A DNA stretch of 64,000 nucleotides from Burkholderiales bacterium (lineage in GTDB: Bacteria > Pseudomonadota > Gammaproteobacteria > Burkholderiales > Burkholderiaceae_C), in the NCBI GenBank assembly GCA_003241965.1, contig QBMB01000001.1:231068-295067 (forward strand). Direction: 5' to 3'. The notes under the pieces are model-generated. The model was not told where the DNA came from. It saw only the letters and a list, made by a program, of their open reading frames with translations, and searched no databases. Below, piece by piece: positions 27,857 through 46,871 of the stretch; the stretch's first letter is position 1; each line of letters opens with the position of its first letter. A program made the translations under genes and the position numbers.

Positions 27857-28138
27857 CATTGGGCGACGCATTTTCTCTTCCGGCATCCCACTCCGCCAAT
27901 CTTTGCTGCCATCTGGCAAACCCTTCCTCGCAACAGGACAGCTAGGCTTGGGCACGCTCTTGCCCGTGACGCGCTAGCTTGGGGCGCCAATTCGTCACTT
28001 CATGGCATGAGAGGTGCTACTGGTTCCCCGTCTGACAGCATGCCCACCGACCCCGCGAAGATCGAAGCAGAACCCATGATGCCCAACCATCGCCGATCGT
28101 GCACCGCGCACACAGTGCCAACCTCACAGCGGCGCTTC

Positions 28139-42144: not shown

Positions 42145-44103
42145 ATGCACATGAGTAGATTTATCACTGTCCCACTAGCCGTACTTTGGTTTGCTATCGC
42201 TGGCAAGGCCTTGCTTGCCTGGCTCTTCGGCGTTTCGATGGAGTTCCCCATCATTGGCGATCCTCCCATGGAGACCGCATTTGGAGCCGCTGCAGCTGCG
42301 ATAACGATCGGGGTTTCGATGTTGCACATCGTCACGGTATGGCTCCTGCGTCGCAACTGGCTTGGGGAGACACTATTTGTATCTTCCTACATCGGCATCA
42401 TTGGCGCCGGACTTGGCTACGGGTTCTGGTGGATGAGTGAGTCGACTGGAGTCATCGGGCATGCCTTCTTCATCGGCATGCTCTTGGTTTGTGGCCTGGT
42501 CATGGCTGGTTTCAAGTCTGGTCTGCTTTTTGCGACCGAGAGAACACGCATGCGCTCAATGGGTGCAAACCAGACTGGATCTGACGTTCAAGCTGACGTC
42601 GCGAGGGCAACCCATCCCAAAACCTCCTTCAAGGACATCTTCGGAAACTCTGATATCAAGGTTCGCCTGAAGGATGCTGCGGAGGCCATCGTCGCTCCCC
42701 GCACGGAAGGGAAGCAGATTCGCAACGGTATTCTTCTCAGTGGTGAGCCAGGAAACGGCAAGACCGTTTTTGCTGAGGCGTTGGCGGGCGAGTTGAAGCT
42801 CCCGTTCCTTCAGCTTTCGTACTCGGACGTGGCCAGCCAGTGGGTTGGCGAGAAGACCTCGCGCATCAACGCGGCGTTCGCACAGGCGCGCCGTCAACAG
42901 CCTTGTGTGCTGTTCATTGATGAGGTGGACAGCTTCTTGGAGTCACGTGACAGCGGCCGCAATGATGGAACGAAGGAAGACCGTGATGTGGTAAATGCGT
43001 TGCTCACGTTGATGGTGGACATCCGCAAGGAAAAGGTCATCCTGATTGCTGCAACCAACCACATCGATCGTTTGGACGGCGCTGGCATCCGTGAAGGTCG
43101 CTTTGACTTCAAGGTGGAGATCACGCCACCCGACCGCGAAGCACGGGTCGGGCTGCTGACACACGGCCTCAAGACTCAACTACCCACGTTCAACGTTGAT
43201 GCCGCCGTTGTAGAGGCTGTGGCGCGGCGCTGGAATGGCTTCTCGGTCAAGCGCATTCTGGCTGTAACAGAAGAACTTCCTTCCTATCTCGCCCGCGAAA
43301 CCAAGACCACGATCGCGTACGAGGACTTCATGGGCGCGCTGCGGATGCTGCAAGGTCGCAAGGGCTCAACGCCCGAGAACGTCAAGCCGATCGCTGAACT
43401 GGTGCTGTCACCCGCCACTCGCGAAATGTTGGACCTGATCGTCGGACGGATGGCTGATCCCGAGCACACAGAGAGCCACGGTGGCACGTTGCCCACAGGC
43501 GTCCTGTTCTTTGGCCCACCAGGCACTGGTAAGACCGCGACCGCCAAGGCGCTCGCCAAGGAGATCGACTGGGCATTCCTGCCTGCCACTGGCGCGGATC
43601 TGGCCCGCGACCCCAAAGCGCTGGAGAAGCTGTACGCAAAGGCGAAGGAACTCCGGCCCTGCGTCATCTTTGTGGATGAGGCCGACGAGTTGCTCAAGAG
43701 CCGCGACTATTCTCCCAACACCGAGTCGACGAACAAGCTCCTGACGCTCATGGATGGTGTCAACGACCGTGTCAAAGATGTGGTGTGGGTAGCCGCGACC
43801 AACAACCCGGAGCAGATCGACGCTGCACTCTTGCGTGGCGGGCGCTTCACCGAAAAGGTGCTGTTCGAAAGGCCATCGGCAGAAGGGTTGGCCGCTTATC
43901 TTGAGGGTTGGTTCACGTCGCGGAAAGTGGCGCTCGAATCAGGCCTCACCTCAGCATCGGTTGCAGAAATGGTGGGTAGCGAGAGCATTGCCAACGCTGA
44001 GGCGTTGGTGCAGGCCGCTCTCAACCGGGCAATCTCACGACGCTCGGCACCAGTGGTGGTGACGCGGGCCGATGTGGAGCAGGCCATGAGGATGGTTCTC
44101 TGA
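42145..44103 (+). CDS. Membrane-anchored double-ring AAA+ ATPase (Cdc48/SpoVK-like)
   Basis: About 4 N-terminal TMs; D1 GEPGNGKT/FIDEVD/REGRFD; D2 GPPGTGKT/FVDEAD/RGGRF. Confidence 0.9.
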   Translation: MHMSRFITVPLAVLWFAIAGKALLAWLFGVSMEFPIIGDPPMETAFGAAAAAITIGVSMLHIVTVWLLRRNWLGETLFVSSYIGIIGAGLGYGFWWMSESTGVIGHAFFIGMLLVCGLVMAGFKSGLLFATERTRMRSMGANQTGSDVQADVARATHPKTSFKDIFGNSDIKVRLKDAAEAIVAPRTEGKQIRNGILLSGEPGNGKTVFAEALAGELKLPFLQLSYSDVASQWVGEKTSRINAAFAQARRQQPCVLFIDEVDSFLESRDSGRNDGTKEDRDVVNALLTLMVDIRKEKVILIAATNHIDRLDGAGIREGRFDFKVEITPPDREARVGLLTHGLKTQLPTFNVDAAVVEAVARRWNGFSVKRILAVTEELPSYLARETKTTIAYEDFMGALRMLQGRKGSTPENVKPIAELVLSPATREMLDLIVGRMADPEHTESHGGTLPTGVLFFGPPGTGKTATAKALAKEIDWAFLPATGADLARDPKALEKLYAKAKELRPCVIFVDEADELLKSRDYSPNTESTNKLLTLMDGVNDRVKDVVWVAATNNPEQIDAALLRGGRFTEKVLFERPSAEGLAAYLEGWFTSRKVALESGLTSASVAEMVGSESIANAEALVQAALNRAISRRSAPVVVTRADVEQAMRMVL

Positions 44104-44702
44104 TGCTGCTTCGGGCGTGCGCTTTTGTAGTCGGCTTCCTTTGCGCATCGGCGCCGGTTTTTGGCCAGCAGGCCTCCACCTCGGCTGGGTCGTTGGGGTC
44201 GATGCCGCTGACGAACGCCACACGGTGTGTGGTCAAGGCTGCAGAGCGGCATTCGGTGAACCCGTGGGTGCTGAAGGCGATCCTCAAGGTGGAAAGCAAC
44301 TTCAAGCCAGGTGCCGTTACCCGCAACACCAACGGTTCGGTTGATCTCGGCATGGCTCAGATCAACTCCATCCATCTCAATGAACTCGCCAAGTACGGTG
44401 TCGGCGAGCAGGACTTGTTGGAGCCTTGCGTCTCGACTTATGTTGCAGCGTGGCACCTCGCCAAGCAACATCGCCGCCATGGCAACACTTGGTTCGCTGT
44501 GGGCGCTTACCACTCAGCTACGCCTTGTTTCAACACCCGGTATGTGGGATTGATCTGGAACACGCTTATCGACTGGAAGGTCGTGGAGGCACAGCGTGCC
44601 GTGGTGCAACCCTTGTCGGCGTGTCGTGCGCGTGGGAGGGCTTCACCGTCTGAGCGGCATGCAGAGGCCACACCAAATGGCCTCCTCGCGTTTGACCACT
44701 GA
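44103..44702 (+). CDS. Lytic transglycosylase (VirB1/IagB-like SLT)
   Basis: AILKVESNF (catalytic Glu), DLGMAQINS, AVGAYHS; signal peptide. Confidence 0.93.
   Translation: MLLRACAFVVGFLCASAPVFGQQASTSAGSLGSMPLTNATRCVVKAAERHSVNPWVLKAILKVESNFKPGAVTRNTNGSVDLGMAQINSIHLNELAKYGVGEQDLLEPCVSTYVAAWHLAKQHRRHGNTWFAVGAYHSATPCFNTRYVGLIWNTLIDWKVVEAQRAVVQPLSACRARGRASPSERHAEATPNGLLAFDH
44511..44702 (+). repeat. Copy 1 of the 192-bp SLT 3' end (in-frame, functional terminus)
   Basis: Encodes HSATPCF...LLAFDH*; immediately preceded by TTAC (44507-44510). Confidence 0.92.
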
Positions 44703-44706
44703 CCAC

Positions 44707-45972
44707 ATGAGCGCATCCGTGATAAAGCGAGCAGCCGTGCTGCGCCTGTACCCGAATCAACAGCAGGTATCGTCCCTGCGTCGATGGCAGGGTGGGCTGC
44801 GCTACGTCTGGAATGCGGTGCTGGACTGCGTGTTCACGTCGCGTGACATAAATGGCCGTTGGCCCACCAAGGCCGAGATGCAGGCCCTCATCGTCGGGAT
44901 GAAGAAGATGGAGGGGACCGAATGGATCGCCGACATCCCCGCGCACGCCCTGTTGACTCTGGCCGACGATCTTTACAAAGCCCTGGTCAACTGGTTCAAC
45001 AGTCTCTCGGGCAAGCGCAAAGGCCCAAAGATTTCCCGTCCCAGATTCCGAGGAAAGTTCGATCGGCAGTTCTCGGTCTACATGGTCAACCAGAACACCT
45101 CGTTCAGCGATGGCCTGGTAAGACTGCCTAAGCTCGGGCAGGTGAAGTTCCGGGCCGGCGACCTGCCTGCCGGACGCCTGTTGTCTAGTCGCGTCTACCG
45201 CGAAGCGAACAAGTGGTACATGGCCAGCATCTTCGAGTGCGATGCACCGGAGATGAATGCTGCACCCGTTGAGTGCATAGGCATCGACATGGGACTCAAG
45301 ACGTTGGCCACTGTCTTTGACGGGCAGGGCATCCGCGAGGTGCCCAAGCTGGGCGCCCTCCGCAGGCATGAGCAGAGGCTGAAGCGATACCAGCGTCGAA
45401 TGAGTCGCAGGGTCAAGGGAAGCAACCGCCGCACCAAGGCAAAGCTGGCTGTTGCACGCCTGCACCAGCGCATCGCCAACATCCGCAAGGACTACGCGCA
45501 CAAGGCCACCAGCGACATCGTAGCCAGTGCGCAGACGATCAAGGTCGAAACCCTCAACGTCAAGGGCTGGGCGAAGAACCGAAGCATTTCCAAGAGCACC
45601 GCCGACGCCAGCGTCGGGATGTTCCTGAACATGCTGCGCTACAAGGCCGCCTGGGCTGGGCGAAGCCTGGTTGAGGTTGGCCAATGGGAGCCGACCAGCA
45701 AGACCTGCAGCGACTGCGGCTCGCACAATGCAACGGTCGTTCTGGGCGTCAGTCGGTGGGTATGCCGCGCGTGCGGCGCGATCCACGACCGCGATCACAA
45801 CGCGGCAAAGAACATTTATGCGTACGGCGAGGAACGCCGAAACGTGACCGGCAACACGGTCGAAAGCGCGTGGACTGGTGGAGATCAGGCGGGAGAAATC
45901 CCGCCAGTGCCCCAGGTTGAAACGCGAATCTTGAAACGGACAGCGCGCAAGTCGAATTGCGCGCTTGCCTAA
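44707..45972 (+). CDS. tnpB: TnpB RNA-guided endonuclease (IS200/IS605 type), RuvC intact, no tnpA
   Basis: RLYPNQQQ HTH; IGIDMG (D), KVETLN (E), TSKTCSDCG...CRACG zinc finger, HDRDHNAAKNI (D). Confidence 0.95.
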   Translation: MSASVIKRAAVLRLYPNQQQVSSLRRWQGGLRYVWNAVLDCVFTSRDINGRWPTKAEMQALIVGMKKMEGTEWIADIPAHALLTLADDLYKALVNWFNSLSGKRKGPKISRPRFRGKFDRQFSVYMVNQNTSFSDGLVRLPKLGQVKFRAGDLPAGRLLSSRVYREANKWYMASIFECDAPEMNAAPVECIGIDMGLKTLATVFDGQGIREVPKLGALRRHEQRLKRYQRRMSRRVKGSNRRTKAKLAVARLHQRIANIRKDYAHKATSDIVASAQTIKVETLNVKGWAKNRSISKSTADASVGMFLNMLRYKAAWAGRSLVEVGQWEPTSKTCSDCGSHNATVVLGVSRWVCRACGAIHDRDHNAAKNIYAYGEERRNVTGNTVESAWTGGDQAGEIPPVPQVETRILKRTARKSNCALA

Positions 45973-46007
45973 AGTAAATAATTCCGCCACTCCGCCACGC
46001 CATGCTT
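45845..46007 (+). ncRNA. Putative TnpB omegaRNA scaffold plus guide (boundaries approximate)
   Basis: Hairpins GGCGGGA-GAAA-TCCCGCC (45888-45905) and AGCGCGCAA-GTCGAA-TTGCGCGCT (45942-45965) overlap the tnpB 3' end, where omegaRNAs are known to lie. Confidence 0.6.
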
Positions 46008-46179
46008 CAACACCCGGTATGTTGGGCTGGTCTGGAACACCCTCATCGACTGGAACGTGGTGCAGGCAGAGCGGGCCGTGGTGCGGCCCTTGTCGGCCTG
46101 CCGTGCGCCTGGGAAAGCCACCTCAACCGCGCGCCAAGCAACAGCCGAATCACCCAACCTCCTCGCGTTTGACCATTGA
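45988..46179 (+). pseudogene. Copy 2 of the SLT 3' end (orphan 63 codons plus stop, no start)
   Basis: Same 192-bp length and frame as copy 1; 46 of 63 aa identical by manual alignment. Confidence 0.92.
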
Positions 46180-46181
46180 AC

Positions 46182-46661
46182 ATGAACAACGACATGCAAA
46201 CCACGGGCGCGCAGCCCAGCGCCATCGGCCCGTTGCTGGCCCTGTTCGAAGCCCTTTCTGAGCAGGATCAGCGCCGCATGTATGCCGTCCTGGGTGCTAT
46301 GGTCGGCGCGGGACCCTCGCCCGCTACAGCAACGGCAGAGCCCGTCACGGCCGAAGAGGGATTGGAGGAACCCAGTGAATTGGTGGCAGTGCAGGAGTGG
46401 TACGCAGGGCTCGGGGATGTGACCGACTATGAGCGCGTATCGCTGCTCAATGAAGCCATCGACAGTGTGCAGGCAGAAGACGCAAGGGCTTTCCTTGTGG
46501 CCCGTCGCCGCGATGTCCTCGACGACAAGCCCTCTGTCTCGGTCCGTGTCGCCGTAACGCGTATCGCAGCTGAGCAGCCTATGCTCATCCTCGGAGCTGC
46601 GGTGGGTGTCTTGCTTGCTGTGGTCAGCTTCGGATCTGGGCTATTCCGCGCCTGGTTCTAG
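46182..46661 (+). CDS. Hypothetical protein with C-terminal TM helix
   Basis: ATG 2 nt after the stop of SLT copy 2. Confidence 0.75.
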   Translation: MNNDMQTTGAQPSAIGPLLALFEALSEQDQRRMYAVLGAMVGAGPSPATATAEPVTAEEGLEEPSELVAVQEWYAGLGDVTDYERVSLLNEAIDSVQAEDARAFLVARRRDVLDDKPSVSVRVAVTRIAAEQPMLILGAAVGVLLAVVSFGSGLFRAWF

Positions 46662-46680
46662 ACCTCAAACACGCTCAACC

Positions 46681-46705
46681 AAGCCAGCATCCGCTGGCTT
46701 TTTTT
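46681..46705 (+). terminator. Intrinsic terminator
   Basis: AAGCCAGC-ATCC-GCTGGCTTTTTTT. Confidence 0.8.
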
Positions 46706-46871
46706 CGCCTGTGCGTGCCGCATTCGCTGAATGAAGGCGCAAAACACGAGGCCGGCTCGCTGCACGTTCGTGTTGAGGGGTCGAGTCCGGTGTCAACGCG
46801 GGGAAGTGGCCTAGTTGACCGGGATCGATCAACGCCCTTTCTACCTAGCATTGGTTCGGAAAGGTAGCGTC

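Follow-up and report, generated by a model that had tools for sequence, protein, structure and literature searches.

A tnpB gene between two diverged ends of a transglycosylase gene in a conjugative element: a probable transposon remnant in a repaired insertion site

How does an intact gene for a TnpB nuclease come to lie between two diverged ends of one and the same gene, with that gene still whole? The locus that raises this question is in a 64,000-nt stretch of contig QBMB01000001.1 from a Burkholderiales bacterium (the window, in which all plain coordinates are counted; labels beginning with L or P are contigs or alleles of relatives). The gene concerned encodes a virB1-like lytic transglycosylase (SLT) in the type IV secretion system (T4SS) operon of a conjugative element. 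We favour, at a probability of roughly two in three, a reading in which tnpB and its omegaRNA are a remnant of a DDE transposon of the IS1595 family whose insertion was repaired by recombination with a diverged SLT allele. The substitute gene end now in use looks like a repair product, selected or fortuitous, and not like a designed part of a mobile unit.

Two gene ends around one nuclease gene

The main features of the locus, followed by its two neighbours, are:

44103-44702, + strand: complete SLT gene, 199 aa (Pfam SLT, E 1e-17)
44510-44702, + strand: copy 1 (X1), the gene end in current use, a diverged homologue of copy 2
44700-44709, + strand: left junction, the SLT stop TGA joined to the final ~10 nt of a lost DDE transposase gene that lead into the tnpB ATG
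44707-45972, + strand: tnpB, 421 aa, intact (Pfam domains, match to ISDra2 TnpB structures)
45742-45986, + strand: omegaRNA-like scaffold over the tnpB 3' end, start approximate (drop in synonymous substitution rate, dS; near-invariance)
45964-45986, + strand: right terminal inverted repeat (IRR), 23 nt, holding the tnpB stop codon and forming the element end
45987-46006, + strand: predicted 20-nt guide template, its first 8 nt the presumed target-site duplication
45987-46179, + strand: copy 2 (X2), the displaced native SLT 3' end, a 193-nt stub without start codon
42145-44103, + strand: double-AAA ATPase gene, its 3' end (43800-44102) the left part of a divergent tract, boundary approximate
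46182-46661, + strand: downstream operon gene, 159 aa, without Pfam match

BLASTN of the upstream against the downstream flank of tnpB aligned 44510-44710 with 45987-46185 at 77% identity over 204 columns (E 1e-41). Each copy consists of 63 codons plus a stop, starting at the same His codon, and the two have 46 of 63 amino acids in common. An earlier reading of this DNA, made from the sequence alone and referred to below as the sequence-only reading, had described two diverged SLT gene ends around an intact tnpB and had denied that they were a target-site duplication; both statements hold. It placed the copy boundaries at that His codon and gave the copies equal lengths, which is correct, but the homology begins one base earlier, at 44510 and 45987. 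The first 20 nt of the copies differ at four sites, all synonymous, as had been seen; counted from C45987 these become guide positions 7, 10, 16 and 19. No transposase gene adjoins tnpB, which is single-copy in the genome.

Many relatives of this locus are known from metagenome assemblies, and a chimera of two strains might be suspected here too. However, the source genome is of isolate quality (99.97% complete, 0.05% contaminated) and carries the same junctions, which recur in two independent Logan assemblies, one 100% identical and the other with 3 mismatches in 9.3 kb. The arrangement is therefore no assembly artefact, and a chimera was rejected.

The tnpB product matches the HTH_OrfB_IS605, OrfB_IS605 and Cas12f1-like TNB domains (PF12323, PF01385, PF07282), all above cut-offs, and its residues 6-371 align with the ISDra2 TnpB structures 8h1j and 8exa (E 1e-65). 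The RuvC motifs GIDMG, VETLN and HDRDHNAAKNI are present and align with the motifs of the solved nuclease, so that the D/E/D triad is intact, as had been read from the sequence; the triad was placed by what we take to be the catalytic residue numbers of ISDra2. Relatives of this protein at 82-88% identity were found only in metagenome and Logan assemblies. A scan of species genomes with the TnpB protein returned only relatives of at most 39% identity, which were of no use for setting the element ends. Within the family the whole-gene ratio of nonsynonymous to synonymous substitution (dN/dS) is 0.12-0.21, and the TnpB of the window has just 4 private changes, all conservative. The gene thus looks to be under purifying selection and the module looks intact.

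A remnant of a DDE transposon family

We gathered family contigs from protein relatives and from a scan of metagenome contigs with a 17-mer of the right end, in which about 10 of 120 hits were true family members and the others chance matches; viral contigs, scanned with a 16-mer, gave 115 hits, of which 2 were genuine and neither had both ends. The right end of the element lies at 45986. Thirteen loci are near-identical up to ...TAAATAATTCCG and unrelated directly after, conservation ending with the bases AATTCCG. The first flanking base, C45987, is also the first base of the homology between copy 1 and copy 2. The last 23 nt of the element match, in inverted orientation, sequence upstream of tnpB in L095, L098, L100, L225 and L226. 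In L098, L225 and L226 an ISXO2-like (IS1595-family) DDE gene lies between this left repeat and tnpB, with its stop overlapping the tnpB ATG, and the elements are bounded by perfect 8-bp target duplications (GACGTTGC, GCCTGAAC and TGTCCGAC; 7 of 8 positions agree in L095). TA precedes the duplication in all four of these insertions (ATA, ATA, GTA and TTA).

These three full copies have the ISXO2-like DDE gene, inverted repeats and 8-bp duplication that define the IS1595 family, and the element is a DDE transposon with TnpB as a passenger. What survives in the window copy is the right repeat, tnpB and ~10 nt of the DDE gene. With its left repeat and the rest of the transposase gene missing, it is to be counted a remnant, not a functional IS1595 member. 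A search of this genome with the L225 DDE gene found no cognate. The sole match in the genome to the Y1 transposase family (PF01797), at 355-681 of contig C107 (L351), lies within a 319-aa open frame and is unrelated.

The element had earlier been framed in IS605 terms, with TTAC, the four bases that stand before copy 1, as target motif. We find an ordinary IS200/IS605 insertion at TTAC, like a chimeric assembly, hardly credible. The 23-nt inverted repeats, the 8-bp duplications and the DDE partner show that the family does not belong to IS200/IS605, and what is conserved on the 5' side is TA. TTAC was rejected as the target-adjacent motif (TAM): the element stops a base too early for it, and the uninterrupted alleles that match the guide read GTAC. 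There is indeed no left-end hairpin, as had been noted, but for another reason than the one supposed: this tnpB family has no such hairpin and uses terminal inverted repeats, of which the left one has been deleted here.

Other members of the family vary in completeness. The full composite copies (L098:732-2678, L225:2029-4280 and L226:1017-3268; ~1.95-2.25 kb) run from the left inverted repeat through the DDE gene and, at an ATGA overlap, tnpB to the right repeat that ends the omegaRNA region. A DDE-less copy in L095 (3958-5277) consists of the left repeat, ~20 nt, tnpB and the right repeat, flanked by AAGTTTC(T/G), and sits in a secretion operon, 10 nt ahead of virB11. Its backbone is 66-72% identical to the window and its tnpB 85%, which indicates that the element has moved between distant lineages of conjugative elements. 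The copy in L096 (1440-2856) is truncated on the left down to ~30 nt of the DDE gene end and lies directly against the opening ~35 codons of another, unrelated tnpB; its right end is degenerate, reading AACTCAA for AATTCCG. L181:755-892 is a solo remnant, the last 138 nt of the omegaRNA region with the right repeat, 94% identical to the window and with no tnpB upstream.

Across 12 relatives, the tnpB-less remnant L181 among them, hardly anything changes in the ~230 nt that precede the right end, and the terminal hairpin shows compensatory changes. Over the last 76 codons of tnpB, dS falls to 0.10-0.33, as against 0.57-1.13 elsewhere in the gene. This looks like a scaffold RNA that overlaps the end of tnpB, with the right inverted repeat doubling as its 3' end; an Rfam scan of 44000-46800 gave no match at E<=1. 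In characterised TnpB systems the guide is the 16-20 nt 3' of the element end (PMC10055086, PMC10278001). By analogy, the omegaRNA would here end at the right repeat and its guide would be the 16-20 nt after 45986, that is, the first nucleotides of the stub. With the right end fixed at 45986 by the 13 relatives, the predicted guide starts at 45987, where copy 2 begins, and the earlier proposal that the start of copy 2 templates the guide is borne out at the level of sequence. The first 11 nt of this guide (CCACTCCGCCA) recur once in the window, at 27888-27907 on the + strand, preceded by ATC and not by TA. Such an 11-mer is expected ~0.03 times per 128 kb of uniform sequence, and the recurrence is probably chance in GC-rich DNA.

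The left junction and the foreign tract

At the overlap of DDE stop and tnpB start, L096, L098, L225, L226 and L227 read TGACCGCATG, and the window reads TGACCACATG. Homology to the family stops immediately upstream of the window junction, at the SLT stop codon TGA, which argues for an illegitimate join, through 3-4 nt of microhomology (TGA), of the SLT end with what is left of the transposase gene, its final ~10 nt. The distance from the SLT stop to the tnpB ATG, 4 nt, is near the stop/start overlap of full copies.

The two gene ends differ in origin. Copy 2 has 97-98% nucleotide identity to the gene end of L223/L230, and its protein is 100% identical to two natural alleles, P0123 and P0126, at their C-termini. 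No allele in the databases exceeds 79% amino acid identity to copy 1; the N-terminal part of the window SLT reaches at most 90%, and the best match of the whole protein is 85%. Judged by these identities, copy 2 is evidently the native end of the gene and copy 1 is foreign. The relatives with an uninterrupted gene agree with this. It had been predicted that empty alleles would show a copy-2-type end followed by a homologue of the gene at 46182, and such alleles were found in L223, L224, L230, L231 and the P0123 contig. The 159-aa homologue begins 3 nt past the SLT stop in L223, L230, L232, L233 and the P0123 contig. A search of 61 related genomes and the PLSDB plasmids with DNA of the locus returned only SLT and AAA genes of ~71% identity, with no tnpB and no close backbone.

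Copy 1 is not set off from what precedes it. Outside the tract the backbone is 95-99% identical to that of the sister elements (against L223/L224 and L230/L231, 95.4% to the left of the tract and 97.1% to its right), whereas the SLT gene is 83.4% identical. In a fine profile against L223/L230, identity is 92-100% up to ~43780 and then 67-87% through the end of copy 1. By this profile, copy 1 is evidently the tail of a ~0.9-kb foreign tract that spans all of SLT together with the final ~300 nt of the AAA ATPase gene before it. Because the divergence runs leftward through the entire SLT gene, copy 1 is no discrete module, and the earlier picture of it as a self-contained piece of cargo had to be given up.

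The sister elements have a history of their own at this place. A different TnpB-like gene (483-492 aa) lies between their AAA gene and SLT (L223:8412-10003, L230:4412-6003, also L224 and L231); Pfam recognises only its TNB domain, and its open reading frame (ORF) continues as far as the native AAA stop, with which the start of SLT overlaps. In these elements the final ~300 nt of the upstream AAA gene are an outlier, 75-77% identical to both other lineages, and form a second divergent tract directly upstream of a tnpB-type gene in this operon. Around the gene in L223, L230 and L231 we looked for a second rescue and found only a duplication of ~10-25 nt of the AAA end, with no long copy and no clear terminal repeats.

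These junctions suggest the following history. A transposon would have inserted into the SLT gene of the T4SS operon at TA|CCACTCCG. A break or gap would then have taken out the left repeat, the DDE gene and the native 5' part of SLT, and a ~0.9-kb tract with a complete SLT gene would have come in from a second, diverged element, by a homologous crossover in or near the AAA ATPase gene end on the left side and by a TGA microhomology join 10 nt before the tnpB ATG on the right. This is the most economical history; a double-strand break, filled in from another element and sealed at a microhomology, would produce it. The outcome is an intact SLT ORF, a tnpB that is immobile and intact, and a 193-nt native stub directly past the right repeat. 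The restored protein has the 199 aa usual in the family and keeps all family-invariant residues. The earlier claim that the gene stays functional thus stands as far as an intact ORF of unchanged length can support it. VirB1-type transglycosylases usually enhance transfer without being essential, and selection for the repaired form is therefore plausible and need not have been strong.

Several points weigh against this account. The donor allele, N-terminal part and copy 1 together, was found in no database searched and not in this genome, and without its lineage the repair event is something that we infer and do not observe. The left edge of the tract is uncertain because the only close backbones (L223, L230 and L231) have their own divergent AAA end beside a tnpB-like gene. 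A tract upstream of a nuclease gene would also be expected from co-conversion during homing, and an arrival stimulated by TnpB is possible. The event is recent, the stub being 97-98% identical to uninterrupted alleles, so that an intact tnpB is no proof of functional upkeep. Finally, the putative TA flank motif is drawn from four insertions, which do not fix the true TAM.

Predicted targets and the possible role of the nuclease

The predicted guide compares with the SLT alleles as follows:

Uninterrupted alleles L223, L224, L230 and L231: 5' flank GTA, 20/20 guide match
Alleles L232 and L233, of another lineage: 5' flank TTA, mismatches at 1, 9 and 13
Window copy 1: 5' flank TTA, mismatches at 7, 10, 16 and 19
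Window copy 2: 5' flank CCG, perfect match, no TA flank

TnpB should thus cut uninterrupted alleles of the copy-2 type, which combine a TA flank with a perfect match, and should spare its own locus because copy 1 is mismatched at guide positions 7 and 10 and copy 2 has no TA flank. The sequence-only reading had seen that copy 1 is mismatched and copy 2 matched without a flank; two of the mismatches are indeed TAM-proximal. On the bases alone, the empty allele contains the predicted nuclease target and the occupied allele does not, and the sequence prerequisites for discrimination between self and non-self appear to be in place. Cutting could give this element an advantage over its sister elements or bring about their conversion.

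Copy 1 had been called recoded, as though changed in order to escape the guide. The guide target has 4 mismatches, and the mean over 20-nt windows of the duplication is 4.8, with 64% of windows having 4 or fewer. The target mismatches are thus at the average and reflect ordinary allelic divergence, and directed recoding was rejected on this distribution.

Could the arrangement nevertheless be an evolved, transposase-free homing cassette, in which TnpB cuts naive SLT alleles and recombination copies copy 1, tnpB and the omegaRNA into them, so that the cassette spreads through related conjugative elements with conjugation kept? If so, nature would have produced a "cleave and rescue" drive that needs no toxin and costs its host element no transfer function. 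Experiments with IS605-family elements have demonstrated both homing by TnpB and gene drive in plasmids (PMC10055086; bioRxiv 10.1101/2025.02.20.638934). At this locus the guide matches naive alleles of four sister contigs at 20/20 positions with a TA flank, the element's own copy 1 is mismatched, and the SLT ORF is intact. A divergent tract lies just upstream in an otherwise 95-99% identical backbone, as co-conversion would leave it; divergence covers ~43.8-44.7 kb on the left with none on the right, a pattern that a one-off repair would equally produce. The naive allele P0123 (SRR22387891), the cassette (SRR22388262) and the full copy L226 (SRR22388316) come from runs whose accession numbers are neighbours and, going by accessions only, may co-occur. 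Yet the arrangement of SLT, copy 1, tnpB and copy 2 occurs in one lineage only, represented by three near-identical assemblies, and not as the same insert in several independent backgrounds. A long diverged flank duplication was seen in 0 of 5 close relatives tested directly and in 0 of 72 distant tnpB loci, so that the recurrent design foreseen at other tnpB loci did not materialise and a replacement gene end is no constant part of the mobile unit. Nor does a built-in rescue agree with the left junction, since tnpB is joined to SLT by a microhomology scar inside a deleted DDE gene, copy 1 is not a unit of its own, and its mismatches are not enriched in the target. In addition, copy 1, at 80% identity, would be a rival template for repair, and conversion without tnpB could follow. 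We consider such a cassette quite unlikely.

The module may also act without homing, as a weapon of competition or exclusion, comparable to a one-spacer CRISPR that would destroy sister elements with an uninterrupted copy-2-type SLT, whether these enter the cell or already reside in it. Its targets in those elements are perfect and fall in the most conserved stretch of the protein, WFAVGAYHS.TPCFN; the insertion and target stretch WFAVGAYHS.TPCFN.RY is invariant or nearly so in 12 alleles (P0121-P0132). In mobile elements, members of this tnpB family recur in regions for transfer or replication (L095, L098, L225). For conjugative plasmids, Mears et al. (bioRxiv 10.1101/2025.02.20.638934) measured both defence and an invasion advantage, and found TnpB-bearing insertion sequences (ISs) enriched near MOB genes. 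The L232/L233 alleles, however, already escape by their mismatches at 1, 9 and 13, and in so recent an event retention is no sign of selection. A weapon of this kind therefore seems rather unlikely to us.

Somewhat more weight, short of an expectation, may be given to the possibility that the module is silent or inactive, the scar of a repaired insertion on its way to decay. The loss of the transposase and the left repeat, the lack of a cognate DDE gene matching the L225 query, the single copy and the recent date would all suit it. The tnpB ORF is nonetheless intact apart from 4 conservative private changes, and the scaffold fits the family consensus. Moreover, tnpB starts 4 nt past the SLT stop in a long co-directional operon, and transcription is therefore likely. 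If it is a mere scar, the locus cautions that diverged, duplicated gene ends around a nuclease gene can stem from ordinary recombination.

Whichever role it has, the locus resembles several known systems in part. With OMEGA TnpB homing (Meers et al., PMC10055086) it shares the protein domains, the RuvC motifs, a scaffold that overlies the 3' end of tnpB and extends just to the end of the transposon, a guide templated by the flank, and an uninterrupted allele as the predicted target. It differs in its DDE partner, inverted repeats, 8-bp duplications and lack of a Y1 TnpA, and in the restoration of the interrupted gene. As the transposase and left end are gone, retention after excision cannot be the role of TnpB here. 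DDE-associated TnpB branches with inverted terminal repeats are reported in general terms by Altae-Tran et al. 2023 (PMC10691335). As outlined there, these branches share with our family symmetrical ends, a distance of no more than 250 bp from the tnpB 3' end to that of the transposon, and copies that have tnpB alone between the same ends (here L095 and L100); the main text names IS630 for one of six branches and does not mention IS1595. The plasmids of Mears et al. (bioRxiv 10.1101/2025.02.20.638934) likewise have a TnpB-bearing IS in a conserved transfer region with predicted cutting of insertion-free sister elements. That study used IS605, and natural guides were not identified in it, whereas here a natural pair of guide and target is visible, the IS is immobile, and a second gene end keeps the target gene whole.

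Homing endonuclease genes also provide a nuclease inside a disrupted target, a predicted cleavable empty allele and an adjoining divergent tract. In their case an intron or intein restores the host gene; none does so here, and no repeated invasion was found. The layout as a whole is also that of prophages e14 and 21 in the E. coli icd gene and of islands that integrate in tRNA genes, which carry a substitute 3' end of the gene they enter. Common to both is the order of gene 5' part, diverged end in use, element and displaced native stub. Those elements, however, have an integrase, a shared core site and a constant substitute end, and the window element has no integrase, a gene end found in no relative and a join that is an illegitimate scar.

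TnpB homing, plasmid gene drive and DDE-associated TnpB are thus already published. What is new is a natural guide and target pair that appears readable between sister conjugative elements, the persistence of a nuclease module past the total loss of transposition functions, and an interrupted gene restored by a diverged allele in a layout like that of prophage-borne substitute gene ends. If TnpB is active here, the locus would let a natural guide be read directly together with its targets, the uninterrupted alleles in sister elements from related samples, something missing from published plasmid-drive work. Persistence of TnpB in a mended gene may also be a first step toward its domestication by a conjugative element for competition. 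The family itself is a clean example of TnpB and omegaRNA in a DDE transposon, with the right inverted repeat also serving as RNA 3' end. The TA flank beside the 8-bp duplication raises the question of how target choice by the transposase and the TAM of the nuclease are kept compatible.

Two observations concern the neighbouring proteins. Among the alleles of the SLT protein the signal-peptide region varies, and the C-terminal tail, approximately 25 residues long, is hypervariable. Between a virB6/TrbL-like gene and SLT lies the gene for the 652-aa protein with its pair of AAA ATPase domains. It is an unusual member of a T4SS operon, and all sister elements keep it in this place, as do plasmids of Hydrogenophaga and Polaromonas.

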